Assembly: GCA_965237955.1 (NCBI GenBank)
Contig: OZ250169.1
Coordinates: 7,008,001-7,072,000 of the forward strand
Length of the DNA stretch: 64,000 bases
Direction of reading: 5' to 3'
From: Candidatus Marinacidobacterales bacterium
Lineage (GTDB): Bacteria > Acidobacteriota > Vicinamibacteria > Marinacidobacterales > SMYC01
The notes under the pieces are model-generated. The model saw only the letters and a program-made list of their open reading frames with translations. It was not told the origin of the DNA and ran no database searches. Each line of letters starts with the position of its first letter. The stretch's first letter is position 1. Position numbers and translations under genes: made by a program. Below are positions 2,210 through 55,783 of the stretch, piece after piece.

Positions 2210-3931
2210 ATGGAGCTCGTTGGACACCAAGTAGGCGCATACAGAATCTTGTCTCTCCTCGGTCGTGGTGGTACGGCCGAGGTCTATAAAGCGTTTCACC
2301 CCGCGTTGAAACGTGAGGTCGCCGTCAAGGTGATCCTCCAGGAAGTGAGCCACGACCACGACTGGGTGCGGCGCTTCCGCCAAGAGGCTGAGCTTCTCGG
2401 TCGGCTCGACCACCCGCATATTCTCCCGGTCTACGACGCGGGCGAGCACGAGGGAAGACCTTACCTCGTGATGAAGTACATGGCCGACGGCCGAACGCTC
2501 CGCACGCAGCTTTCGGGGCAACCGTGGCCGCTGAACCGAGCGGTCAAAGTCGTCGGTCAAGTCGCCGAGGCTCTCGACGCAGCGCACCAAGCGGGCGTCG
2601 TCCACCGCGACATCAAACCCTCGAACATTCTGGTCACGCCAGACCTCAGATGTCTGGTGTTCGACTTCGGTATCGCCAAGCCGTTCCGACGGGACGAGAA
2701 CACCACCGGCTCCGGCCTCATCGTCGGAACACCCGAGTTCATGTCGCCCGAACAGTGCAAGGGCGACAAGATCGACCACCGCTCCGACATCTACTCCCTC
2801 GGCGTCATGACATACCAGATGCTCACCGGCCACGTACCGTTCTCCGCGGAGACAGCGGTCGGCATTCTCATGAAGCATCTGACCGAGCCGCTTCCGATCC
2901 CACCGAAAGGGGTCGCGCTCCCGCCGGCGGTCAACGGTGTGTTGCGGAAGTCGATGGCGCGTGACGCAAGGGACCGCTTCGATGCCGCAGGCGAGTTTGG
3001 GGTCGCGTTTCATCAATCGGCTGATCAGCGCGCGACGGTCACGCTGCACGCTGGAGAGATCCGACGGGCGGCAACGCCGACGTTGAAACTCCCTCAGTGG
3101 GTGCGCAAGTGGAAGCGCCAGGAGATCCGCCTCGGTCTCGCCGGCGCGGTGCTACTGACAATGGCGGGAGCGATCTATGCACTTTGGCCGAGCTCGTCAA
3201 CACCACAACAAGGGACCGCGATCGCCGGGCCGCCGGCACCGCCGCTCGTTACGGAGGGGGCGGAGGGAGCAACGACCGATGCCAACGCCGACGCTCCCGA
3301 GTCTCAGCCCGCTCCGCTACCGCTTCCCCCTTCGGCGCCGGTTCGCCGCCCGGGACATATCGATACGAACCCATCGATATCGCTCGGCAGCCTCCATATC
3401 GAGTCGAATGCGCCGGCGAGCGTGCTGTTGGATGGACACCCGATCGGAGCGGCGCCCGGCGTCTTCCAATCGGTCGAGCCCGGTGAGCGAAGCGTTATCC
3501 TCGACGCCGGCCAAGGCCGCGTCCACGAGCAAACCGTGGTTGTCACCGCCGGCTCCACGCACCACCTTCGTTTCGATTTCGAGACGACGCCGGTGGACGT
3601 CACCGGTGCGATGGCCCGACCGCATCAAAGCGAAAGCATCGTGTCGAGCGCTACGAGCACGACGTCACGAAGATTCGACCGACCGCCGCGCATTCGCGAG
3701 TGGACAGGCTGGCTGACGGATGCGGATTGCGGAGCGACGGGGGGCAAGCAAGGCGCCCTTCACCTACGGTGCGCCGAACGTTGTATCCGATCGGGACAGC
3801 AGCCGATGCTGTACTCGCGCGGCAAGCTCTATCGCATCGATGGATTCGAGAACGTGACCATCGTTCGCGGCGAGCCGCTTACGGTTCGAGGCTGGCTCGA
3901 GCTCGACACGATCCACGTCAGCGAGCCATAA
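2210..3931 (+). CDS. Ser/Thr protein kinase: TM segment, PEGA domain and C-terminal Cys/His beta-domain
   Basis: GRGGTA, HRDIKPSN, DFG, SPEQ; TM at ~aa 307-326; PEGA-like GSLHIESNAPASVLLDG; GGAGG RBS. Confidence 0.93.
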   Translation: MELVGHQVGAYRILSLLGRGGTAEVYKAFHPALKREVAVKVILQEVSHDHDWVRRFRQEAELLGRLDHPHILPVYDAGEHEGRPYLVMKYMADGRTLRTQLSGQPWPLNRAVKVVGQVAEALDAAHQAGVVHRDIKPSNILVTPDLRCLVFDFGIAKPFRRDENTTGSGLIVGTPEFMSPEQCKGDKIDHRSDIYSLGVMTYQMLTGHVPFSAETAVGILMKHLTEPLPIPPKGVALPPAVNGVLRKSMARDARDRFDAAGEFGVAFHQSADQRATVTLHAGEIRRAATPTLKLPQWVRKWKRQEIRLGLAGAVLLTMAGAIYALWPSSSTPQQGTAIAGPPAPPLVTEGAEGATTDANADAPESQPAPLPLPPSAPVRRPGHIDTNPSISLGSLHIESNAPASVLLDGHPIGAAPGVFQSVEPGERSVILDAGQGRVHEQTVVVTAGSTHHLRFDFETTPVDVTGAMARPHQSESIVSSATSTTSRRFDRPPRIREWTGWLTDADCGATGGKQGALHLRCAERCIRSGQQPMLYSRGKLYRIDGFENVTIVRGEPLTVRGWLELDTIHVSEP

Positions 3932-3990
3932 AGTTAAAGTTAAAGCGGGCACGGCTCTTTGCCCCCACGCCCTTAACCGTGCCCACTTTT
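3929..3990. terminator. Probable bidirectional intrinsic terminator
   Basis: Stem GGGCACGG...CCGTGCCC (3947-3984), followed by ACTTTT on + and by (CTTTAA)x3 on -. Confidence 0.55.
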
Positions 3991-4167
3991 CTCGAGAACG
4001 CTACCGGAGGAAGAACGCCTGCCACAGGACGGGAATTCTGCGGCTCGACGTTCTCCCTCCGGTCCCCGGATGCCGGCCTGGTCCGAACACTCACCCCCCA
4101 CACGAGCGTTACGTGTCCATTCCCAGCCGGCTTCGCGTCGCTCCAACCAAAGTAGCCCCACAATGCC
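3935..4167 (-). ncRNA. Candidate sigma54-dependent structured small RNA
   Basis: Lies directly downstream of a consensus -24/-12 promoter. Two long hairpins (4072-4131 and 4003-4063) whose mismatches are mostly G.U on the minus strand; ends at a terminator; no credible ORF or RBS. Confidence 0.55.
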
Positions 4168-4176
4168 CCTCAGGTA

Positions 4177-4193
4177 TTGCAAGGCGAATGCCA
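4177..4193 (-). promoter_or_regulatory. Sigma54 (-24/-12) promoter
   Basis: TGGCATTCGCCTTGCAA, with exact GG-N10-GC spacing. Confidence 0.75.
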
Positions 4194-4267: not shown

Positions 4268-4328
4268 TGTAGCGGCGGTGGGAACACTCGATCGTTTACG
4301 CCGCCCCGGTGTAGCGCCGGTCGCTACA
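4268..4328. promoter_or_regulatory. Tandem enhancer (UAS) sites for a sigma54 activator
   Basis: TGTAGCG-gcggt-GGGAACA (4268-4286) and perfect TGTAGCG-ccggt-CGCTACA (4310-4328), 42 bp apart and 75-135 bp upstream of the -24 box. Confidence 0.65.
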
Positions 4329-4352
4329 CTTAATCTTGCTCAGCGAGGGTCG

Positions 4353-6159
4353 CTACACGTCGCTTTCGCCCGGATCGCGCCCCTTCCGCGAGCGCAGGTT
4401 CTTGTGAATCAAGGTGCGATGCATCCCGGACTCTTTCGCGGCGTGGCTGATGTTACCGTCCGTTTGCGACAGCACGTAGTCCACGAAGCGGTCCTCGAGC
4501 TCCTGGGCATAGATCCCAGAGAGCTCCTGAAGCTCGTTGCGGCGGCGTTTCAGCTGGGCGTAGTCCCGCGGGAGGTCGGCCATGAGCCGCTTGAAGGGGT
4601 CTTTGGCAATCTTCAAAATATTCTTCCGCGTGCCCGAAACCTCTTGGGGCAGATCGTCGAGGGTGATCGATCGGCCGCGATTCTCGACGACGAGCCGTTG
4701 CACCACGTTCTCGAGCTGGCGGATGTTGCCGCGCCACTCGTGATTTCGTAGACAGTCATAAACCTCAGGCTCGATCTGAGGTCGTTCCTTGAGGCCAATC
4801 TCGATCGTGAAAACGTTCACAAAATGGTCGACGAGCAACGGAATGTCTTCCTTCCGCTCGCGCAACGCCGGGAGCTCGATCGGGTACACCCACAGGCGAT
4901 AGTACAAATCCTCGCGAAATTCCCCTTGTTGCACCAGCTCGCGAAGGTCTCGATTCGTCGCCGCCACCACGCGCGTGTCCACGCTGATCGTGCGCCTGCC
5001 ACCGAGGCGCTCGAACGTGCGCTCTTGCAGGAACCTGAGAAACTTCGCCTGCAGCTTTTTCGATAGCTCGCCGATCTCGTCGAGAAAGAGCGTCCCCGAA
5101 TCGGCCATTTCACAACGGCCCATGCGGTTGACCGCTCCGGTGAACGCGCCCGGCTCGGTACCGAAGAGCTCCGCCTCCAGCAAATCCTCGGGGAGGGCGT
5201 CGCAGTTCACCACGACGAGAGGTTTGTTCGCGCGATCGCTCGCTTTGTGAATCGCGCGCGCGACGAGCTCTTTACCGGTGCCGCTCTCGCCGTCGATGAG
5301 CACGGTCGCTTGTGTGGGCCCTACCTGCTCGATGCGCTCGATGATCTCGAGCATCCGCGGTGACGAGCCGACGAGCCCGTCGAAATACGTTTTCCCCTTC
5401 ATCTCGCGGTACAGACGCTTGCGGGCTTCCACCTCCTCGTCGAGGCGGAGGGTCGCGTTCAAAAAGACCGCGGTAAGTCGTCCGAGAGCTCGCAGTAGCT
5501 CGAGATCTTTCTCACCGAACGCGCCGCTGGCCCGCTGGTTCTCGAAATAGATGCAGCCCGCCAGATAGTCTTTGAAGCGCAACGGGATGGCGAGAACGGA
5601 GCGGAGCTTGAGCTGTTGAGCGCTCTCCTCGTTCGCGAGGAGCTCGTCGACTTGAGCGTCGTCGACGAGCACGGAGTCGTTTCCGGCAGCGATCTCTCGG
5701 ATGATGGTGCGGCTCACCCGGGGGTCGTGGTCAATGCTTTGGTGCCGGTCGTTGCGCGCGGCCATGACCTCTGCCTCGGACTCGGCGCTGCGAAAAAGCA
5801 AAACCGCGCCCGAGCCGGCTCCGACTTCGGCAAGCAGGTCGTCGAGCACTCGTTCCGAAGAAACGGTGTGCGGAGCGCTCCTCGAAAAAATGCATGGCGG
5901 TCCGAGTCGCGAGATCGACGAAGGGCGAGTGCAACACCCCGGTGCCCTTCGTGTAGAGCTCGTTCTCGAGCTCGGTGATGGCGGCGTCCAACGACTGGAG
6001 AATTTCGGGGGCGACCGACGGTCGTGGTTGGTGAGCGGCCGACAGATCGTGAACGCGCTGGTGCAGCCCCTTCAGTCCGGTCAGGACTTTCTGATACGAA
6101 GCGCCTTCTTCGGAAATAGGATCTTTACGTCGCGACACGTCGGCTCCATAAACAGGCAC
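4353..6159 (-). CDS. GAF-domain sigma54-dependent transcriptional activator (AAA+ and Fis-type HTH); +1 frameshift near 5856
   Basis: GESGTGKE, GAFTGA, LFLDEIG, WRGNIRQL, C-terminal HTH. ORFs 5731-6159 and 4353-5849 join (..HRFF-ERVLDDLL..) if one G is removed. Confidence 0.88.
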
Positions 6160-6212: not shown

Positions 6213-6458
6213 TCAAGACGACGCCGGGGGGGAAGAAGAAGCCACCTCCCCGTTCCTATGGCTCTTTGGGGCGGGGTGGAGGATGTTTCGTAGGACGAAT
6301 CGCTGGCTTTCTACAAACACATTCAAACATAGCGGGCATCGGTCGAGATGACTCAGGATCTTCGAACGGGTGCCGCCGTCACAAAGCCCATCGATGAGCT
6401 GAGCGAGCGCCTCGGCGTCCGGGCAAACCCCGCGCGCCAACCGCCGTTGGATCATCAT
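6213..6458 (-). CDS. Small zinc-finger anti-sigma (ZAS / zf-HC2-like) protein
   Basis: CPDAEALAQLIDG...HLDRCPLC (HxxxCxxC); directly downstream of the ECF sigma; GGGAGG RBS. Confidence 0.75.
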   Translation of the reverse strand: MMIQRRLARGVCPDAEALAQLIDGLCDGGTRSKILSHLDRCPLCLNVFVESQRFVLRNILHPAPKSHRNGEVASSSPPASS

Positions 6459-6474
6459 GGCTCATCCTCCCGTT

Positions 6475-7056
6475 TTATCCAGGCCGTTTATAGCAGGCAA
6501 TTCTGGGCAACTTCTGCCCTGCCTGCCCTGCCCGGGTTAGACGGCTAGCGACGTAGTCTTCACGCCCGGGGACGCCGACGTTTTCGAGAGCATCCTCCTC
6601 GACGCGCTTGGCACGTTGGCGGCGTGGGAGTTGGATCGCGAGATCCCAGAGAGCCTCCCCGCTGAGAGCTGTATCTGTCCGGGTGAGAAGCATTTCTCGG
6701 GCCTCGTGGAAGTCGATACCATCGCGGTAGAGGAGCGTTTCCAGCTCGACCGCAGTCGCCCCGAGCCTCGTGGCGGTCGTGGACGGACGCCATTTACCCC
6801 ACTTCTGGGTACGGTAGTCGAGGAAAAGTCGCTGCATGACGACGGTGAGGTACGTCCGGAAGCTACTGTCGCCACGGTATTTCCGAAGCCGGGCGTAGTC
6901 GTTCTCGACGAGTTTCAGCATGGCGTACGACGTAAAGTCCTCGCGTTCGTCCGTCTCCAGGCGATTGCGACGGGATAAAAAGCGAATGAGCTCCTCGACC
7001 AGCGAATAATGGGCCTCGAAGAGCTTGCGGCCTTGGGCTTTCGTGCTGTTCGACAT
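6475..7056 (-). CDS. ECF-type sigma-70 factor, apparently lacking region 4 (possible pseudogene)
   Basis: Region 2-like EDFTSYAMLKL...YRGDSSFRTYLTVVMQRLFLDYR; GGAGG RBS. After ..EDYV the sequence is low-complexity with no region 4 HTH. Confidence 0.7.
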   Translation of the reverse strand: MSNSTKAQGRKLFEAHYSLVEELIRFLSRRNRLETDEREDFTSYAMLKLVENDYARLRKYRGDSSFRTYLTVVMQRLFLDYRTQKWGKWRPSTTATRLGATAVELETLLYRDGIDFHEAREMLLTRTDTALSGEALWDLAIQLPRRQRAKRVEEDALENVGVPGREDYVASRLTRAGQAGQKLPRIACYKRPG

Positions 7057-28748: not shown

Positions 28749-30368
28749 GTGGCTCACGCTGTCCGGTGGAAGGACGTCCTCCTCGCTACCGCGGTATTCT
28801 CGCTCGCGAGCCTGGTGTACACGTTCCCCCTCATCACCGCTCCAGCTCACGCGAATCGACTCGACAGCCCCGATGCACTCCTCAACGCCTGGATCATCTC
28901 GTGGGACGTCCATCAGTTACGAGCCGACCCGCTTCACCTCTTCGACGCCAACATCTTCTTTCCTGAAAAAGGCACACTCGCGTATTCCGAGAACTTGGTG
29001 ACGGGCGCGCTCATCGCCGCGCCGGTGGCCGCGTTCAGCGACAACCCCATCGTGGCCTTCAACACCGTGCTGTTGTTCGCGTTCGTGCTCACCGGCGTCG
29101 CAACCTTCGTCCTCGCCTACGACCTCACCGGCGACCGTCTGGCCTCGATACTCGCCGGCGTTCTGTTTGCTTTCGCACCCTACCGGTTCGCACACATTCC
29201 CCATCTGCAACTTCAGCTCGCGTTTGGCATTCCGTTGAGTCTGCTCTTTATTCGCCGGCTCGTCATGAATACGGCGAGTACGTTGACTACGTCGGGAACG
29301 TCGGCGGGATACGCAGCGGTCGGCTTCGCGCTCTCTGCAGCGCTGACGTTTGGCTCGAGCGTGTACTACGCGGTTTTCGTCGCGAGCGTCGCGCCGCTCG
29401 TCGCGCTCACCGAGATCTATTGGCTCCCTCGGCGCCGGCGTCTGGCTGCGATCGGGCGGCTTTTCCTCGCCGGCATCGGCGCTATCGTCCTGACGTTGCC
29501 GCTCGCACTTCCCTATCTCGACAAGCTCCAAGGCGGCACGGTGCGCTCCCTGGAAGCCGCTTCGAGTTTTTCCGCCGGCGTTACCGAATATGTCTCGAGC
29601 TTCTCCCGAGTCCACGCCTTTCTACCCAAGGCGGCCGAGCCTCTGTTTCCCGGGTTCGTTGCTCTGGGGCTTGCGGCAGCGGCGCTCATCGGCGTCTCCC
29701 GTGAGGGGACGAGGAAGCGGTGTTGGGCTCTAATAGGCATCATCGGCGTTGTGCTCTCGGCAGGACCGGCGCTTGGCCTGTTCTCGTTTCTGTATCACAT
29801 CGCGGGGCCGTACCGTGCTCTCCGCGTGCCCTCGCGGGCGGGAGTCCTCCTGTTGCTCGCGGTTGCGGTGCTCGCCGCTCTCGGGCTGACGCTCGTTCGC
29901 AAGAAAGCTTTTCGATGGGCGCTCGTCGCGATCGCGGCCGTCGAGTGTATGGCCGCGCCACTCCCGCTTCGGCTCGATGTCCCGACCTATCCGCCGATCT
30001 ATATGGATGTCGAAGCTCTGGCCGGGCCCGGTGCTCTCGTCGAGCTTCCGCTCCCACCGCCCGAGCGATTCCAGGACAACGCGCTTTTCGTCTATCGATC
30101 GATCTACCACCGCCGGGAGCTCGTAAACGGCTACAGTGGCTTCGTACCCCGGAGCTACCGGCGCGCGCATCGCCTGCTCATGCGACGCAATTTCACGCGG
30201 GGTCTAGAATCGATGTGGCAAGACGGGGTGCGGTTCGTCCTCGTTCACGAAGGCAGACTCGGACCGCGCATGCTCCGACAGATCCAACAAGCGCGGGATT
30301 CCGGAGCTCTGGTGATGGTGTCGGAGAGCGCGCCGGATCGTCTCTACGCTATCGCGGCTTTGCGATAA
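28749..30368 (+). CDS. Polytopic membrane protein, probable GT-C glycosyltransferase (YfhO-like)
   Basis: D.LLNAW..W, FDANIFFP..TLAYSE, FAFAPYRFAH, LVNGYSGF; many TM segments. Confidence 0.8.
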   Translation: MAHAVRWKDVLLATAVFSLASLVYTFPLITAPAHANRLDSPDALLNAWIISWDVHQLRADPLHLFDANIFFPEKGTLAYSENLVTGALIAAPVAAFSDNPIVAFNTVLLFAFVLTGVATFVLAYDLTGDRLASILAGVLFAFAPYRFAHIPHLQLQLAFGIPLSLLFIRRLVMNTASTLTTSGTSAGYAAVGFALSAALTFGSSVYYAVFVASVAPLVALTEIYWLPRRRRLAAIGRLFLAGIGAIVLTLPLALPYLDKLQGGTVRSLEAASSFSAGVTEYVSSFSRVHAFLPKAAEPLFPGFVALGLAAAALIGVSREGTRKRCWALIGIIGVVLSAGPALGLFSFLYHIAGPYRALRVPSRAGVLLLLAVAVLAALGLTLVRKKAFRWALVAIAAVECMAAPLPLRLDVPTYPPIYMDVEALAGPGALVELPLPPPERFQDNALFVYRSIYHRRELVNGYSGFVPRSYRRAHRLLMRRNFTRGLESMWQDGVRFVLVHEGRLGPRMLRQIQQARDSGALVMVSESAPDRLYAIAALR

Positions 30369-30371
30369 CGG

Positions 30372-30584
30372 CTACTGCTCGAGCAGAGAGTCGGGCTCGA
30401 GGAGCCAGCCATAGTCGTGCAGGCGCTGGGTGCGGGGCTCGCCGAGCGGTGGCTCGTCGCTGTGCTCTTTGAGGATTGCGGGACCGGGAACGAGCCAGCT
30501 GTTCACCAGGTATTCCCAATAGGCCAACCGTTGCCCGTACTCTTCCGCTTCGGACCACTCTGCTCTGGGGATTGCTTCTGCCAC
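30372..30584 (-). CDS. Small acidic, Trp-rich protein of unknown function (70 aa)
   Basis: GTG start with GGAGG 5 nt upstream, directly behind a consensus sigma54 promoter. Confidence 0.65.
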   Translation of the reverse strand: MAEAIPRAEWSEAEEYGQRLAYWEYLVNSWLVPGPAILKEHSDEPPLGEPRTQRLHDYGWLLEPDSLLEQ

Positions 30585-30615
30585 GGTAACCTCCAGGACT
30601 CGCTACCTTGGGAGC

Positions 30616-30632
30616 ATGCAACCCACATGCCA
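30616..30632 (-). promoter_or_regulatory. Sigma54 (-24/-12) promoter
   Basis: TGGCATGTGGGTTGCAT, with exact GG-N10-GC spacing. Confidence 0.75.
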
Positions 30633-30748
30633 CAACCAGACGGGCACATGCGTCGGTATTTCTTGCTTGTTTTCATAGACTTAGAAGTCCTGTGGAAAAA
30701 CTCCCTCGCCTCGGCGTGGTAATTAACCTACGAAGGTGACTACGGTTG

Positions 30749-30786
30749 GCTACAAAACCGGAAATTTTGTAGTGCACCCCGCTACA
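30749..30786. promoter_or_regulatory. Enhancer (UAS) matching the sites at 4268-4328
   Basis: TGTAGTG-caccc-CGCTACA (30768-30786) plus a GCTACA half-site (30749-30754). Confidence 0.6.
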
Positions 30787-30811
30787 TTCATTAAGGGGTG
30801 TGTTCGGACTA

Positions 30812-32944
30812 TCAGTAAAAAGACTTGCGGTTGGACAGGAACTTCGGGGGTTCGAAGCGGCGTCCTAGCTTGTCCTGCCACTTTTTCAGGTTGTCGACGA
30901 TGCGATTCAGACCGTAGCCGTCGGCGTATCGCAACAAGCCTCCGCGGAATGGGGGGAACCCGGTGCCCATCACCATCGCGAGGTCGAGCTCGCCGGCGCT
31001 CGCCACGATCTCGTCGTCGAGACACCGCGCCGCTTCTGCAACCATGAGACCGAGGGCGCGCTCGATGAGCTCGTCCGCGGGCACCCGGCTTTCATTGCGG
31101 AGGGGATCAACTCGCGCAATCGCGAGCACGGTGGCGTCGGGGGTCTCTTTCTTGCCGGGCTTGCCGTCATAGCGATAGAAACCGCGTCCTGCCTTCTTCC
31201 CCAAACGTCCCTCGGTAACGAGCTTGTCGACGAGAGCTGACGGTTGTGTGCGCTCGCCAAACGCCGCCTTCAGAACCTTTCCCGCTTTCTGCGCCACGTC
31301 GAGCCCCACTTCATCGAGAAGTCTCAACGGCCCCATCGGCATCCCGAAGTCGACGAACGCGCGGTCGATGGCCTCGACGTTTCCGTACTCGGCGAGAAAG
31401 TGTCCCGCCTCGTTGAGGTACGGCCCCAGGATACGATTCACCAAAAACCCCGGCCCATCGTTGACGAGCACCGGAGTCTTCCCAAATCGCTTCGCGAGCG
31501 CAACGAGAGACCGAACGGTTGTATCATCCGTCTCTTTGCCGCGGATCACTTCGATGAGCGGCATGCGGTCGACGGGGTTGAAAAAGTGGAAGCCCGCCAT
31601 GCGCGCCGGATCGTCGAGGACGCTTTGCATGTCGGACACCGATAGCGTCGAGGTATTGGTGGCGATGATGCAATCCGCCGAAACGTGTGGCTCCAGCTCG
31701 CGCAAGACGCTCTTTTTGATGGCGAGGTCCTCGACGATCGCTTCGATCACGACGTCCGCGCGCCGAAAGCCAGTGAAATCGAGCGTGGTGGTGATGAGCG
31801 CCATCTTCCGATCGAGCTCCCATCGTGTCATCCCCAGCGGGCGCCGGCGTTTCCGGCGCTTTTCGAAAATATCGCGCGCCGCACGTAGTCCTTGGCCGAG
31901 CGCATCGGGGCTTATGTCCTTGAGGCGGACCGGGATGTCCACGGACGCCAGGATACGCGCAATCCCACCCCCCATCGTGCCGGCGCCGAGGAGCGCAGCG
32001 GCTTCAACGGGACGCGGAGTCGCATCGGTGCCGGGATCTTTCTTGGCCGCCTCGTTCAAGAAGAAGAGGTGAACGAGGCTTTTGGAGACGTCCCCGGGAA
32101 GAAGCTCCTTCGCGCGCTCGGCTTCGAGCTCGAGCGAGCGCTTGCGCGATCGCCGGCCTTCGCGCAACACGTCGATGATCGCGAGCGGCGCCGGATAGTG
32201 TCCTTTTGTTTGAGCCAGAACCCACTTTTTCGCTTGGGAGAACAGGATAGCTCTGCCGATGGGGTTCGCGGTAAGCAGCCACTCCGAGATAGATGCTTTG
32301 CGCCGTTTTGGTTTCTTGCCGTTTTGGAGATCTCGAAGGAGCTCGAGTGCGCGCCGCCCAAGCTCAGCGTGGGCCACGGCGCGATCGATGATCCCGAGAC
32401 GCTCGGCACGCTCGGCGTCGATCCCTCGGCCGCGCAGGATGAAATCGAGCGCCTTTTTTAGCCCGATGAGCCGCGGCAGCTGCGTGGTACCTCCCCACGC
32501 GGGGAGGATCCCGAGGTTGACCTCGGGGAGGCCAATCTGAAAACGCGGATGGTCCGAGCCCACGCGCGCGTCGCACGCGAGCGCTATCTCGGTTCCACCC
32601 CCGAGACAAACGCCGCCGATTGCTGCAACCACTGGAAACGGCAGGGCTTCGACACGGTCCATGATCGCCTGCCCCGCGCGAACAGCCTCGGCAGCGATCT
32701 CACCATCGGTGATGGTTTGAAACTCGGCCACATCAGCGCCGGCGAGGAACATCCCGTCCTGGTTGGACGTGATGATGGCCCCGCGCACCCCCGGGAGCGC
32801 CTCGAGCTCCGAAAGAATCGTCTGCAAGCGCTCCATCACCGCCCGCGACAGCTTGTTCACCTTTTCGCCCGGTGAATCAAAGGTGATCCAGGCGATGTCG
32901 TCGTCGAACTCCAGTCGGATCGGCGTCGAATCGGGCCCGCTCAT
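30812..32944 (-). CDS. fadJ: Fatty acid oxidation multifunctional enzyme (enoyl-CoA hydratase / 3-hydroxyacyl-CoA dehydrogenase)
   Basis: FLAGAD, CLGGGTEIALAC, LPEVNLG, GAGTMGGGIA, TNTSTL, HFFNPV, GTGFPPFRGG. Confidence 0.9.
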   Translation of the reverse strand: MSGPDSTPIRLEFDDDIAWITFDSPGEKVNKLSRAVMERLQTILSELEALPGVRGAIITSNQDGMFLAGADVAEFQTITDGEIAAEAVRAGQAIMDRVEALPFPVVAAIGGVCLGGGTEIALACDARVGSDHPRFQIGLPEVNLGILPAWGGTTQLPRLIGLKKALDFILRGRGIDAERAERLGIIDRAVAHAELGRRALELLRDLQNGKKPKRRKASISEWLLTANPIGRAILFSQAKKWVLAQTKGHYPAPLAIIDVLREGRRSRKRSLELEAERAKELLPGDVSKSLVHLFFLNEAAKKDPGTDATPRPVEAAALLGAGTMGGGIARILASVDIPVRLKDISPDALGQGLRAARDIFEKRRKRRRPLGMTRWELDRKMALITTTLDFTGFRRADVVIEAIVEDLAIKKSVLRELEPHVSADCIIATNTSTLSVSDMQSVLDDPARMAGFHFFNPVDRMPLIEVIRGKETDDTTVRSLVALAKRFGKTPVLVNDGPGFLVNRILGPYLNEAGHFLAEYGNVEAIDRAFVDFGMPMGPLRLLDEVGLDVAQKAGKVLKAAFGERTQPSALVDKLVTEGRLGKKAGRGFYRYDGKPGKKETPDATVLAIARVDPLRNESRVPADELIERALGLMVAEAARCLDDEIVASAGELDLAMVMGTGFPPFRGGLLRYADGYGLNRIVDNLKKWQDKLGRRFEPPKFLSNRKSFY

Positions 32945-41904: not shown

Positions 41905-43271
41905 GGATGTGTCCCGAGGTCCGTGGAAAAAGAACGGCGCCCTCCACTCCGTCATCAGAGTATCATATCAGGCGGCAACCTCCGTGTGTTCGAGAACCTC
42001 GCTCAGACGTTGGTAGCCGTCGATGCGTCGTAGTTGAATCTGGCCAGAGGCGATAAGCCCAAACAGCAAAGCGACCGCGGACTCCTCGCTGGAGAACGAC
42101 GCTTGGGTTTTCGTCCGGCGTCGAAACTCGCGGTTGAGATTCTCCAGAGCATTGGTCGTTCGAATCGATTTCCACATGGCACGAGGGAATTCGTAGAAGG
42201 TCAGCAGCTGATTACCGGCCTCCTCTAGGCTTCGGACGACGGCTGGTGCGAGAGGCGTCCACTTGGCGACGAGCTCGTCATAGGCTTTGCGAGCATCGAT
42301 CCCGTTCTTGGCGTAGACGATCCGGTTGTAGTCACGCCGGAGCTCACGGCGTGCGTGCGCCGGGCAATGTTCGAGCAAGTTGGCGCGCTTGTGCTCGGTA
42401 CATCGCTGCAACCGGCACCCCGGCCACTTCTCGAGCGCCTTCGTCAGCCCCTTGTGGCCGTCGCTGATCACTAGCTTGGGAGCCCGGAGTCCTCGAGCCT
42501 GGAGTCCCTCCAGCACGGAGCCCCAATGCGTCGAGGCTTCGCTCACCGCCAGACGCAATGACAACAGACGTTTCTGCCCGTCTGGCGCGACCCCGAGCGC
42601 GACCAGTACGGGTACGCTGATCACACGTTTCGCCATCCGCACTTTCAGGTGGAAGCCGTCCAGGTAAACGATCGCGTAGACCTCCTCGCTGAGAGCACGG
42701 TTCTGCCATTCCTCGAAGCGCTCCTTCAGCCGGCTAACCACGCGAGACACCGCGCTCTTCGATAGGTGCTCCTCACCGAGCAGTGGTTTCAGCGCTTTGC
42801 GGATCCGGCGGCTATTCGCGCCCGAGAAGTACGTCCCCAAGATCGCCTCGTCGACCTCACGAGTCCGGCGCGCATACCGGGGCAACAGCTCGCTCCTGAA
42901 CTCTGTCGTTTCTCCCGTTTCCTCGTCTCGCACGCGGGCTCGTGGCACCCGGAGCTCGCGAGTTCCCACCGACGTCGTCACGCGACGGGTTTCGGCTCCG
43001 TTGCGATATCCACGGCGGTCTTCCGCACGCTCGTAGCTACCACACCCCAGCGCTTGGTTGACTTCTTCCTCGAGCACGACCTCGATTGCCTCCAGTACCC
43101 GCTTACGCAGCCGAAGTTGGACGAACTCCCGGTACTCGCTTACAGACTCCTTCGATATGGTGGTAGGCTTCTTCATGGCGTAATCCTCCTCCTCGCCTTT
43201 CCAGGCGCGGTTTCGTTTTGTTTAACCGGAGGTTACGCCATTCTTATTTCCACGGGAAGCGGGACGGATCC
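41905..43271 (-). mobile_element. Complete IS256-family insertion sequence (1367 bp)
   Basis: Imperfect ~40-bp TIRs (GGATGTGTCCCG..CCGTGGAAAAAGAA / GGATCCGTCCCG..CCGTGGAAATAAGAA); 8-bp target duplication AAGCGCCG at 41897-41904 and 43272-43279. Confidence 0.93.
41968..43176 (-). CDS. IS256 family transposase
   Basis: YRNG, VPRAR, YLDG, ISDGHKGL, QRCTEH, RTTNALENLNREFRRRT. Confidence 0.96.
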   Translation of the reverse strand: MKKPTTISKESVSEYREFVQLRLRKRVLEAIEVVLEEEVNQALGCGSYERAEDRRGYRNGAETRRVTTSVGTRELRVPRARVRDEETGETTEFRSELLPRYARRTREVDEAILGTYFSGANSRRIRKALKPLLGEEHLSKSAVSRVVSRLKERFEEWQNRALSEEVYAIVYLDGFHLKVRMAKRVISVPVLVALGVAPDGQKRLLSLRLAVSEASTHWGSVLEGLQARGLRAPKLVISDGHKGLTKALEKWPGCRLQRCTEHKRANLLEHCPAHARRELRRDYNRIVYAKNGIDARKAYDELVAKWTPLAPAVVRSLEEAGNQLLTFYEFPRAMWKSIRTTNALENLNREFRRRTKTQASFSSEESAVALLFGLIASGQIQLRRIDGYQRLSEVLEHTEVAA

Positions 43272-53539: not shown

Positions 53540-53616
53540 CGCGGGGTGGAGCAGTCCGGTAGCTCGTTGGGCTCATAACCCAAAGGCCGCGGGTTCAAAT
53601 CCCGCCCCCGCCACCA
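53540..53616 (+). tRNA. tRNA-fMet (CAT), initiator type
   Basis: Cloverleaf; CAT anticodon; three G-C pairs in the anticodon stem; C1 unpaired; GGTTCAAATCC T-arm; encoded CCA. Confidence 0.96.
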
Positions 53617-54692: not shown

Positions 54693-55783
54693 GTTGCCTT
54701 GGTGCACAACTCGCGATCTCGGTCCACAATTGTCCTTTACTCACGGATTCGAGGTTCCCCATGAGCATTTTCAAACGCACTCAGCGGAAGTATGTGAAGA
54801 AGGCCTATCGCGTGAGGAATTGGCGTGAATATGAGGCGGGTCTACGCAACCGTGGGAGCCTGACCGTCTGGATCTCGCTCACCGCCGGCAAGCTTGTGAA
54901 CTGGGACGCGCCCCGGCCGAGGAGGAGGAAACCGGGCCGTCAACGCAAGTACTCGAACCACGCCATCGAGACGGCTGTCACCCTGGGCATGGTGTTTCAT
55001 CTGTCATCTAGGCAGAGCGAGGGATTGCTGCGATCGTTGTTCGCTCTGATGAAGCTAGACAATGATGTGCCCGATCACACCACGATCTCGAGGCGCAAGG
55101 CGAAGCTGGGTAAGGTCCCCTTCTACCAAGACAAGCAGAAGACGCCGTTGCACATCTTGATCGACAGCAGCGGTCTCGCTGTCCACGCCGGCCAGCTGCG
55201 CAGAGCACCAAAGAGCAGGGACTATCGCAAGCTCCATCTGTGTGTCGACGAGCAGAGTGGCGAAGTCGTCGCCGGCGAGCTGACGAGCAAAAGAGCCCGC
55301 GATTCATCGCGGGTTGCATCGCTTGTCGGACAGATCGACAGTCCCATCTCATCGGCCAGAGCTGACACCGCATACGACGCCGGCGGCGTCTATGAGGCAA
55401 TCGAGAATCACAGCGCTCATTGCTCGCCGAGGGTGCTGATACCGCCGCGCAAGGGCGCCCAGCTCGCATCGGGGCCGGCGAGCAGCCGACAGCGCAATCG
55501 CAACATTGCAGCACAAGCTCGGCTCGGCAAACGAAAGTGGCACACAGAATCGGGCTACAGCAAACGGAGCAAAGTCGAGACAACGTTCCATCGCTACAAG
55601 GCTATCGTGGGCTCAGCGATGCGAGCGAGAGGGTTGGCGGCACAGAGAGTCGAGGCAAGGATCGGGTGCAAGATTCTGAACACCATGACGGCGCTCGGGA
55701 TGCCTGATAGCGAGATGATCGGATGATGGGAGTCGGGGCCAAGCGAGCTCTCGGCCTCTATCGGAGTTGTGCACCAAGGCAAC
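54693..55783 (+). mobile_element. IS5-family (IS903-like) insertion sequence
   Basis: Perfect 20-bp inverted repeat GTTGCCTTGGTGCACAACTC (54693-54712 / 55764-55783); no clear target duplication. Confidence 0.88.
54761..55726 (+). CDS. IS5 family transposase
   Basis: YRVRNWREYE..LRNRGSLTVW, VPDHTTISRR, IDSSGL, ADTAYD, GYSKRSKVET. Confidence 0.94.
   Translation: MSIFKRTQRKYVKKAYRVRNWREYEAGLRNRGSLTVWISLTAGKLVNWDAPRPRRRKPGRQRKYSNHAIETAVTLGMVFHLSSRQSEGLLRSLFALMKLDNDVPDHTTISRRKAKLGKVPFYQDKQKTPLHILIDSSGLAVHAGQLRRAPKSRDYRKLHLCVDEQSGEVVAGELTSKRARDSSRVASLVGQIDSPISSARADTAYDAGGVYEAIENHSAHCSPRVLIPPRKGAQLASGPASSRQRNRNIAAQARLGKRKWHTESGYSKRSKVETTFHRYKAIVGSAMRARGLAAQRVEARIGCKILNTMTALGMPDSEMIG

Follow-up and report, generated by a model that had tools for sequence, protein, structure and literature searches.

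The 64,000-nt stretch of DNA analysed here (hereafter the window), from a Candidatus Marinacidobacterales bacterium, contains a 70-codon ORF preceded by a sigma54-type promoter. An initial annotation proposed that this orphan ORF and a small RNA locus 26 kb away share one enhancer and form a two-member regulon of the activator encoded beside the RNA. Is the ORF a gene, which activators control it, and what might its product do? The gene is conserved, and we lean towards the view that it is controlled from two enhancers, likely by a GlrR-like regulator and a GAF activator, and that its product, predicted to be a small cytoplasmic protein, tunes one programme through protein binding. Features are listed in Table 1.

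Table 1. Features at the 70-aa gene and at the EBP-A/small RNA locus (window positions).
Feature	Position	Strand	Remark
Putative structured small RNA: two long hairpins plus a terminator-like one	3930..4165	-	z = -6.2, 0/200 shuffles; covariation
Sigma54 box of putative small RNA	4177..4193	-	box behind EBP-A in 10/14 loci, plus G012
Motif A dyad behind EBP-A	4310..4328	.	further half-sites 4268-4273 and 4352-4357 (latter over stop codon)
EBP-A: N-terminal extension, GAF, sigma54-activator AAA+ with GAFTGA loop, Fis-type HTH	4353..6159	-	start uncertain (6138 or 6159)
Membrane protein gene, no Pfam family, conserved convergent neighbour	28749..30368	+	context
Stem-loop directly past stop codon, no U tract	30346..30371	-	predicted fold; possible terminator between convergent genes
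70-aa protein gene, GTG start	30372..30584	-	family restricted to two Marinacidobacterales families; helix residues 12-31 predicted
Ribosome-binding site GGAGG, 5 nt spacing to start	30590..30594	-	GAGG kept in 21-promoter alignment
Sigma54 -24/-12 box TGGCATGTGGGTTGCAT	30616..30632	-	box in 21/21 orthologous promoters
IHF-like TTTCAT-N4-TTA, A+T-rich stretch	30671..30683	+	A-rich...TTA pattern at same place in relatives, by eye
Motif B proximal site, YGTRGG-N6-CCYACR	30691..30708	.	ends 58 nt before box; -57 to -59 in 13/16 family promoters
Motif B distal site, YGTRGG-N6-CCYACR	30715..30732	.	ends 82 nt before box; -79 to -83 in 15/16
Extra motif A half-site TGTAGC	30749..30754	-	seen in sequence
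Motif A dyad TGTAGY-N7-RCTACA	30768..30786	.	136 nt from sigma54 box of 70-aa gene
fadB/fadJ-type gene, conserved upstream neighbour	30812..32944	-	context, outside the unit

The 70-aa gene and its sigma54 promoter

The ORF described as an orphan proved to have homologues. A 26-sequence profile detected it in 23 of 26 genomes of two Marinacidobacterales families (15/18 in its own family and 8/8 in the sister family) and in none of 28 genomes of the third family of the order; it was also found in none of 400 other genomes drawn from the phylum. The three own-family genomes without the gene (G003, G008 and G010) showed no match to the neighbouring fadB at E<=1e-50 either, in a search run without a positive control, suggesting assembly gaps or loss of the whole region. 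Protein searches for the family yielded 96 clusters among 267 candidates, and a profile search of 1.84 billion representatives at 50% identity gave 21 matches at E<=0.001. Fourteen new profile matches were inspected (P0097-P0108, P0110 and P0111; the 1251-aa P0109 was left out); 12 were short family members and 2 were unrelated repeat-rich proteins. The genome itself carries no paralogue of the ORF. dN was lower than dS against all 15 orthologues compared (dN 0.10-0.69, dS 0.42-4.5), a set that left out 5 further loci with broken or extended frames, and mismatch by codon position was 0.31/0.25/0.46. Judged by sequence comparison, the ORF is a real protein-coding gene under purifying selection. 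The acidic, Trp/Tyr-rich reading frame behind GGAGG-N5-GTG was present as originally described (GGAGG 30594-30590, GTG 30584, pI 4.38). An insertion of ~4.5 kb interrupts the G018 copy behind codon 24-26 (L019, G018:C1:6745479-6750232), and the C-terminus of the protein is altered in G002, G025 and G033. A marine-sediment metatranscriptome gave three short contigs from related strains, at a depth of ~3, which within 29800-31300 covered only 30366-30594 and are too thin to serve as evidence; none of its contigs lay over the RNA locus. A second run, of doubtful RNA status, covered everything.

Synteny is strict in both families: in the window and at 20 further loci the gene lies between fadB and the convergent membrane gene. 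This arrangement would suit a metabolic or envelope role tied to the neighbours, of which fadB encodes a fatty-acid beta-oxidation enzyme, with no feedback on regulators. We consider such a role improbable; a promoter of its own separates the 70-aa gene from fadB in 21/21 cases, up to 2.7 kb of other DNA lies between the two genes in the second family, and the membrane gene is faced tail to tail. Elsewhere the window carries a Mutator-family transposase (41968-43176), a tRNA gene (53540-53613) and a DDE transposase (54761-55726).

The sigma54 promoter noted at first ahead of the ORF was confirmed. TGGCA-N7-TGC was found in all 21 promoters examined (the present one and those of 20 of the 23 relatives with the gene), lying 44-59 nt ahead of the position that served as anchor for the gene start. 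rpoN is located at genome position 5927252-5928721 and was found in 21/21 genomes searched. By its conserved box, the promoter of the 70-aa gene is of the sigma54 type. The IHF-like element between dyad and promoter is likewise present at 30671-30683, with two mismatches to the IHF consensus. A third dyad, GTGTCA-N5-TGACAC, lies upstream of the small gene in both G029 and G031 (L024, L025), and half of it stands next to an A half-site in G002, G016, G001 and G014; it possibly belongs to a third activator.

Motif A, EBP-A and the small RNA locus

The initial annotation had matched the dyad at 30768-30786 to that at 4310-4328. The match held at 13 of 14 arm positions and in spacer length, but the spacer bases agree at only 1 of 5 positions. 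In a scan of the 8.13-Mb genome the motif (motif A) was rare and tied to sigma54 boxes: five exact sites were found, where ~1 was expected by composition, and a strict sigma54 box lay 64-136 nt from all five, as compared with 0.48% of random positions. The three sites that had not been used for motif definition all had a box, as did 2 of 19 one-mismatch sites. Control patterns with other spacer lengths had a box at 0 exact and 1/64 one-mismatch sites; the reversed pattern had a box at 0/7 exact and 1/162 one-mismatch sites. A matrix trained on sites from other genomes placed the same six promoters on top (6/7 sites scoring >=17, 0.1 expected). Besides the small RNA and the 70-aa gene, motif A promoters were found at 3255578, ahead of an 87-codon ORF and of a gene for a 549-aa protein without a Pfam family; at 3258645, ahead of a BNR-repeat protein with a KAP NTPase; at 4922045, ahead of a 151-aa membrane-anchored ORF beside a transposase-like gene; and at 5494386, ahead of a 308-aa protein of no family.

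In 26 relatives we found 58 exact A sites (up to 15 in one genome), 9 of them at the activator or the 70-aa gene and 49 elsewhere, two of the latter representing one duplicated locus. A box (relaxed pattern) accompanied 28 of these 49 sites, versus a background of 2.2%. Exact A sites without a box by the pattern used amounted to 21/52, and 9 of these had near-consensus boxes by eye. At A promoters the distance from site to box was often 61-78 nt. Pfam matches were obtained for 20 of 28 ORFs downstream of A sites in relatives; the products included amidases, an M23 peptidase, trypsin, a caspase-like protein, Ser/Thr kinases, metallophosphoesterases and NAD-binding reductase domains, together with a halogenase, an AMP-binding (fatty-acyl-AMP-ligase-like) enzyme, a carrier protein, an MbnB/TglH/ChrH protein and a pentapeptide-repeat protein. 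Two of the products, an ABC permease and a 2Fe-2S protein, may be bystanders. The A regulon therefore does not consist of two members, since motif A, near-matches counted, marks at least six promoters here and many more in relatives. It appears to be open and accessory-rich, comprising the small RNA and a changing set of wall hydrolase, protease, caspase-like, natural-product and kinase genes. Motif A may be a ready marker for accessory and natural-product loci under one activator, and a possible handle for their heterologous activation.

The activator gene next to the RNA (EBP-A) is split into two ORFs in the assembly, because of one extra base at 5858; this base is absent from the contigs of 3/3 DNA-like runs, and relatives have one gene of ~600 codons. 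The protein passed no curated NCBIfam cut-off. EBP-A orthologues were found in 14 of 27 genomes, and frameshifted pieces in G012. All 15 genomes with EBP-A had at least one exact A site, and 10 of the 12 without it had none; a reversed-pattern control matched 25/27 genomes irrespective of EBP-A. Of the two exceptions, G003 (84% complete) has 2 A sites, no box and no EBP-A. The other, G027 (83% complete), counts against the association: a box accompanies 4 of its 5 exact A sites, and its best EBP-A match is only 43% identical. A fadB tree of 20 genomes requires three changes in EBP-A presence, so that the co-occurrence amounts to three events rather than 27, relatives not being independent. The dyad overlaps the EBP-A stop codon in 8/14 loci. 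At the 70-aa promoter, an A site or its left half was present at -131 to -138 in 11 of 12 own-family genomes with EBP-A (5 exact, 2 with one or two mismatches, 4 half-sites; displaced in G012) and in none of the 4 that lack it. Five second-family promoters of the gene were examined, two of them in genomes with EBP-A, and none showed an A site. Because motif A tracks EBP-A across relatives with one clear exception (motif in 15/15 genomes with the gene and 2/12 without), EBP-A is its likely reader, as had been proposed for the activator at 4353-6159.

An ECF sigma factor gene (6475-7056) and a short HxxxCxxC ORF, presumably zinc anti-sigma-like, lie just upstream of EBP-A (window 6250-7056); at this position several relatives have one longer ORF and others have none.

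The sRNA locus behind EBP-A has the features of a structured non-coding RNA, as initially suggested. The region 3930-4170 folded with z = -6.2 relative to shuffles, and two-sided changes occurred at 21 of 30 hairpin pairs among 11 orthologous sequences, which are related to each other and align poorly. The locus had no Rfam match. A 62-codon ORF across it was rejected as an explanation: it has no homologue in the genome, relatives show indels and differing frames, and the structure is kept instead. In most relatives hairpin 1 retains a G-rich stretch and hairpin 2 a UUCCCGUCC loop (L053-L062); these two elements might base-pair, or the loop, which is C-rich, might bind ribosome-binding sites. 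In G015 the RNA is deleted and an A-like site remains.

Of the A regulon, only the small RNA and the 70-aa gene were found in most of the family genomes examined, and in several genomes the two lie within ~20-45 kb of each other. These facts are what one would expect if EBP-A controlled only the RNA and the small protein as a dedicated pair, for instance an RNA with its target or partner, the version first put forward. This arrangement is nevertheless highly improbable: at least four more promoters exist here and many in relatives, the 70-aa gene persists without EBP-A, and pairing of the RNA with the start region of the gene was no better than with shuffled sequences (at most ~1 standard deviation, 10/10 genomes).

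Motif B, EBP-B and a probable second input

The most conserved enhancer of the 70-aa promoter is a tandem pair of another dyad, motif B, which the initial annotation missed. The distal B site was kept in 4/4 family genomes without EBP-A; because the B enhancer persists where EBP-A is absent, the 70-aa gene does not depend on EBP-A alone. In the second family, B sites were convincing in only 2 of 5 promoters (G029 and G031; tandem, further upstream). In the genome under study, 18 of 257 B sites with a 6-nt spacer lay near a sigma54 box (2.0 expected; a matrix version was also run), versus 0-5 B-like sites with other spacers (1.2-1.9 expected). Thirteen B target genes were scanned, and 10 had a Pfam match: PilM, PilZ, three DUF4388, REC-GGDEF, TPR, DUF5122, DUF2341 and bactofilin. 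The bactofilin gene has tandem B sites and no box by the pattern used. By these assignments the B regulon would consist of type IV pilus, c-di-GMP and surface genes. TTTTCCACA, which we take to resemble the DnaA-box consensus, is one half of the B dyad, and its reading as a DnaA box was dropped.

Two further B loci were observed. In the window, a strong tandem B pair (2043-2084) with the same 24-nt spacing as at the 70-aa gene lies between divergent Ser/Thr kinase genes (406-1908 and 2210-3931); a pattern search of 1850-2210 found no sigma54 box around it. At genome position 1935381-1935911, two B sites serve divergent sigma54 boxes, one facing a REC-GGDEF gene and one an 80-aa ORF.

The candidate reader of motif B is EBP-B, a REC-AAA-HTH protein with a GlrR-like C-terminus encoded at genome position 2.68 Mb. 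In the two families, 20 of 26 genomes (14/18 and 6/8) carry EBP-B at 92-97% identity, and G005, G008, G021 and G029 carry it in pieces; it was found in 0/10 third-family genomes and 0/6 genomes outside the order, a distribution close to that of the 70-aa gene. At 18 of 24 loci a B-like site spans the EBP-B start codon, and four genomes have a sigma54 box upstream of the gene. EBP-B was not found in G013 (99% complete), although B sites are kept there. Taken together, EBP-B is more likely than not the reader of motif B. Residues 1-194 of EBP-B are missing from the present assembly, in which the remainder is fused out of frame to a FecR-domain gene (L118:3131-4700, genome 2679130-2680699); in G009 the activator is intact and is preceded by a FecR-like gene, by B-like sites and by a sigma54 box. 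A conserved stretch at the EBP-B start had been read as a sigma70 promoter; this reading was rejected, the stretch being the start of the coding sequence.

The activators may have been wrongly assigned, in that one protein reads both motifs or another sigma54 activator reads A or B. The half-sites TGTAG and YGTRG are alike, the genome has ~21 sigma54 activator loci including a PrsK-PrsR pair, and there are A sites in G027, where no clear EBP-A was found, and B sites in G013, which yielded no EBP-B. However, A and B differ in their strict spacers, targets and distributions, B is kept in genomes that lack both A and EBP-A, and the PrsR box, in the available text of its description, is 17 nt long and ends in TTTACA (PMC1569441). 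On this evidence a wrong assignment is unlikely.

Two different enhancers on one promoter make the 70-aa gene a likely junction of two sigma54 regulons, one for pilus and cell-surface genes and a larger one to which the small RNA belongs. In the mechanism that we favour, EBP-B would act from the B pair in response to a phosphorylation signal and EBP-A from the A dyad in response to a GAF signal, the bound activator looping to sigma54-RNA polymerase over the IHF-like site. B would be the older input, because it goes with the 70-aa gene in both families, and A would have been added later in one family. Alternatively, EBP-B could be the sole activator here, and EBP-A at the distal A site could repress or compete, so that the regulons are opposed rather than summed. 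The A site lies 131-138 nt from the box, beyond the B pair and further away than at most A promoters, and only half of it is left in 4 genomes; PexR, in the accessible part of the report, is described as both activator and repressor (PMC12754779). However, G012 has a deletion of the B pair and of the A+T-rich stretch, and an A-like site there ends 92 nt from the box, which is intact; this fits activation from A, with the caveat that EBP-A is in frameshifted pieces in that assembly. We regard antagonism as unlikely and lean towards activation from both sites.

Possible role of the product and relation to known systems

The 70-aa protein is acidic and soluble (14 D/E vs 5 K/R, 4 Trp, 4 Tyr; computed GRAVY -0.7), and presumably too small for an enzyme. 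Family members are mostly 70-73 residues long and consist of two conserved blocks, the second a C-terminal GW.EP-like motif, around a variable linker; I5, P6, W10, E14, R19, W23, L26, V27, W30 and L31 are conserved. An AlphaFold model contained one confident helix (residues 12-31; mean pLDDT 65, pTM 0.31), and by this model the protein may lack a stable fold when alone. The protein had no match in Pfam or in PDB sequences (best E 0.53), nor in NCBIfam, where the best E was 0.013 in 1 of 26 family members. Foldseek searches of the pdb and viral sets and of the ESM Atlas gave no match, and these fold searches are weak because of the low confidence of the query model (pTM 0.31).

Two readings of the product were rejected. 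As a RiPP precursor it would be expected beside modifying enzymes or a transporter, and none adjoins it in the window or at the 20 further loci, where the neighbours are fadB and the membrane gene. As a PEP-CTERM target it would carry a PEP-CTERM tail, which it lacks, in line with the absence of Pfam and NCBIfam matches. Small anti-activators and connectors such as PspA, HrpV, FleN and PmrD are made within an activator's regulon and tune a regulator. A similar job for the 70-aa protein is a functional conjecture, as it has no sequence or fold match to any library family. We tentatively propose, as a possibility well short of an even chance, that it is a feedback or connector factor, in the simplest case an inhibitor or adaptor of EBP-B or its pathway. 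The aromatic helix (W10-L31) and the C-terminal GW.EP motif would then be binding surfaces joined by the variable linker. A modulator of EBP-B or of the pilus/c-di-GMP pathway is favoured because the protein shares its distribution with EBP-B and because no other conserved protein gene was seen under both motifs. A bolder version, which we think unlikely, makes the protein a new class of anti-activator or connector in a myxobacteria-like sigma54 cascade that switches between surface motility and attack on neighbours. If this were true, an ancient, near-invariant response regulator would drive type IV pilus and c-di-GMP genes, and a GAF activator would control a new small RNA as well as a mobile arsenal comprising wall hydrolases, proteases and natural-product clusters.

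An activator gene followed by a small RNA with its own sigma54 promoter is also known from cbrB-crcZ. In the open-access literature we found no paper on the 70-aa protein, on motifs A and B, or on sigma54 control in Marinacidobacterales. The motifs, the activators, the RNA and the protein family appear to be undescribed, although motif A or B may match a published Desulfovibrio (PMC3333781) or PrsR logo. The initial statement that this is not a described system thus holds for the parts, apparently new, but not for the architecture, which is known from nla19-pxr and from LuxO/SypG-qrr1. For this uncultured order of Acidobacteria, the locus thus provides a pair of enhancer motifs, each with a candidate activator, together with a candidate small RNA and a family of small proteins.

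The comparisons that follow refer to the available portions of the cited papers. In Myxococcus, the small RNA pxr has its own sigma54 promoter behind the activator gene nla19 (Mxan_1078) (PMC5568312). The present locus is similar in layout: a sigma54 activator gene is immediately followed, in a conserved position, by a multi-stem-loop RNA with a sigma54 box of its own. Nla19 belongs to the response regulators, whereas EBP-A lacks a receiver and carries a GAF domain, and the RNA has no Rfam match; the available text on nla19-pxr is silent on a 70-aa protein (PMC5568312). PexR of Myxococcus is, like EBP-A, a GAF-AAA-HTH protein; it binds CACCG-n6-CGGTG and targets ahpC and katB, and homologues are reported in Acidobacteriota (PMC12754779). 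Neither this site nor these targets, as given there, fit EBP-A; the site differs from both A and B, and PexR was rejected as the reader of either. Nla28 of Myxococcus is a sigma54 activator over natural-product genes (PMC7910581), and A-site promoters in relatives similarly precede halogenase, fatty-acyl-AMP-ligase-like, carrier-protein and MbnB/TglH/ChrH genes. It differs, in the portion available, in activator type, the promoters here being intergenic with a palindromic site.

The PrsR regulon, whose PEP-CTERM box lies ~63 nt from the sigma54 box (PMC1569441), resembles the present regulons in its dispersed single-gene sigma54 promoters, its motif B-like distance, its surface-related targets and the assignment of its activator through a phylogenetic profile. 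PrsR was rejected as the reader of A or B, since its motif differs by the text description and the PrsR of this genome is a third protein. The PrsK-PrsR pair, at ~6.54 Mb (L121:5807-10457), has a transposase-like ORF between its genes, and the receiver domain of PrsR is apparently cut off. For the promoter itself, a parallel in the sources available is Pqrr1 of Vibrio fischeri, which is activated by LuxO and SypG as an OR gate (PMC10162802). Both would be single sigma54 promoters served by two enhancer-binding proteins, although the output of Pqrr1 is an RNA and that of the present promoter a small protein, and the two inputs here use separate motif types. The 70-aa promoter may represent a natural case of a second enhancer added over an older one.
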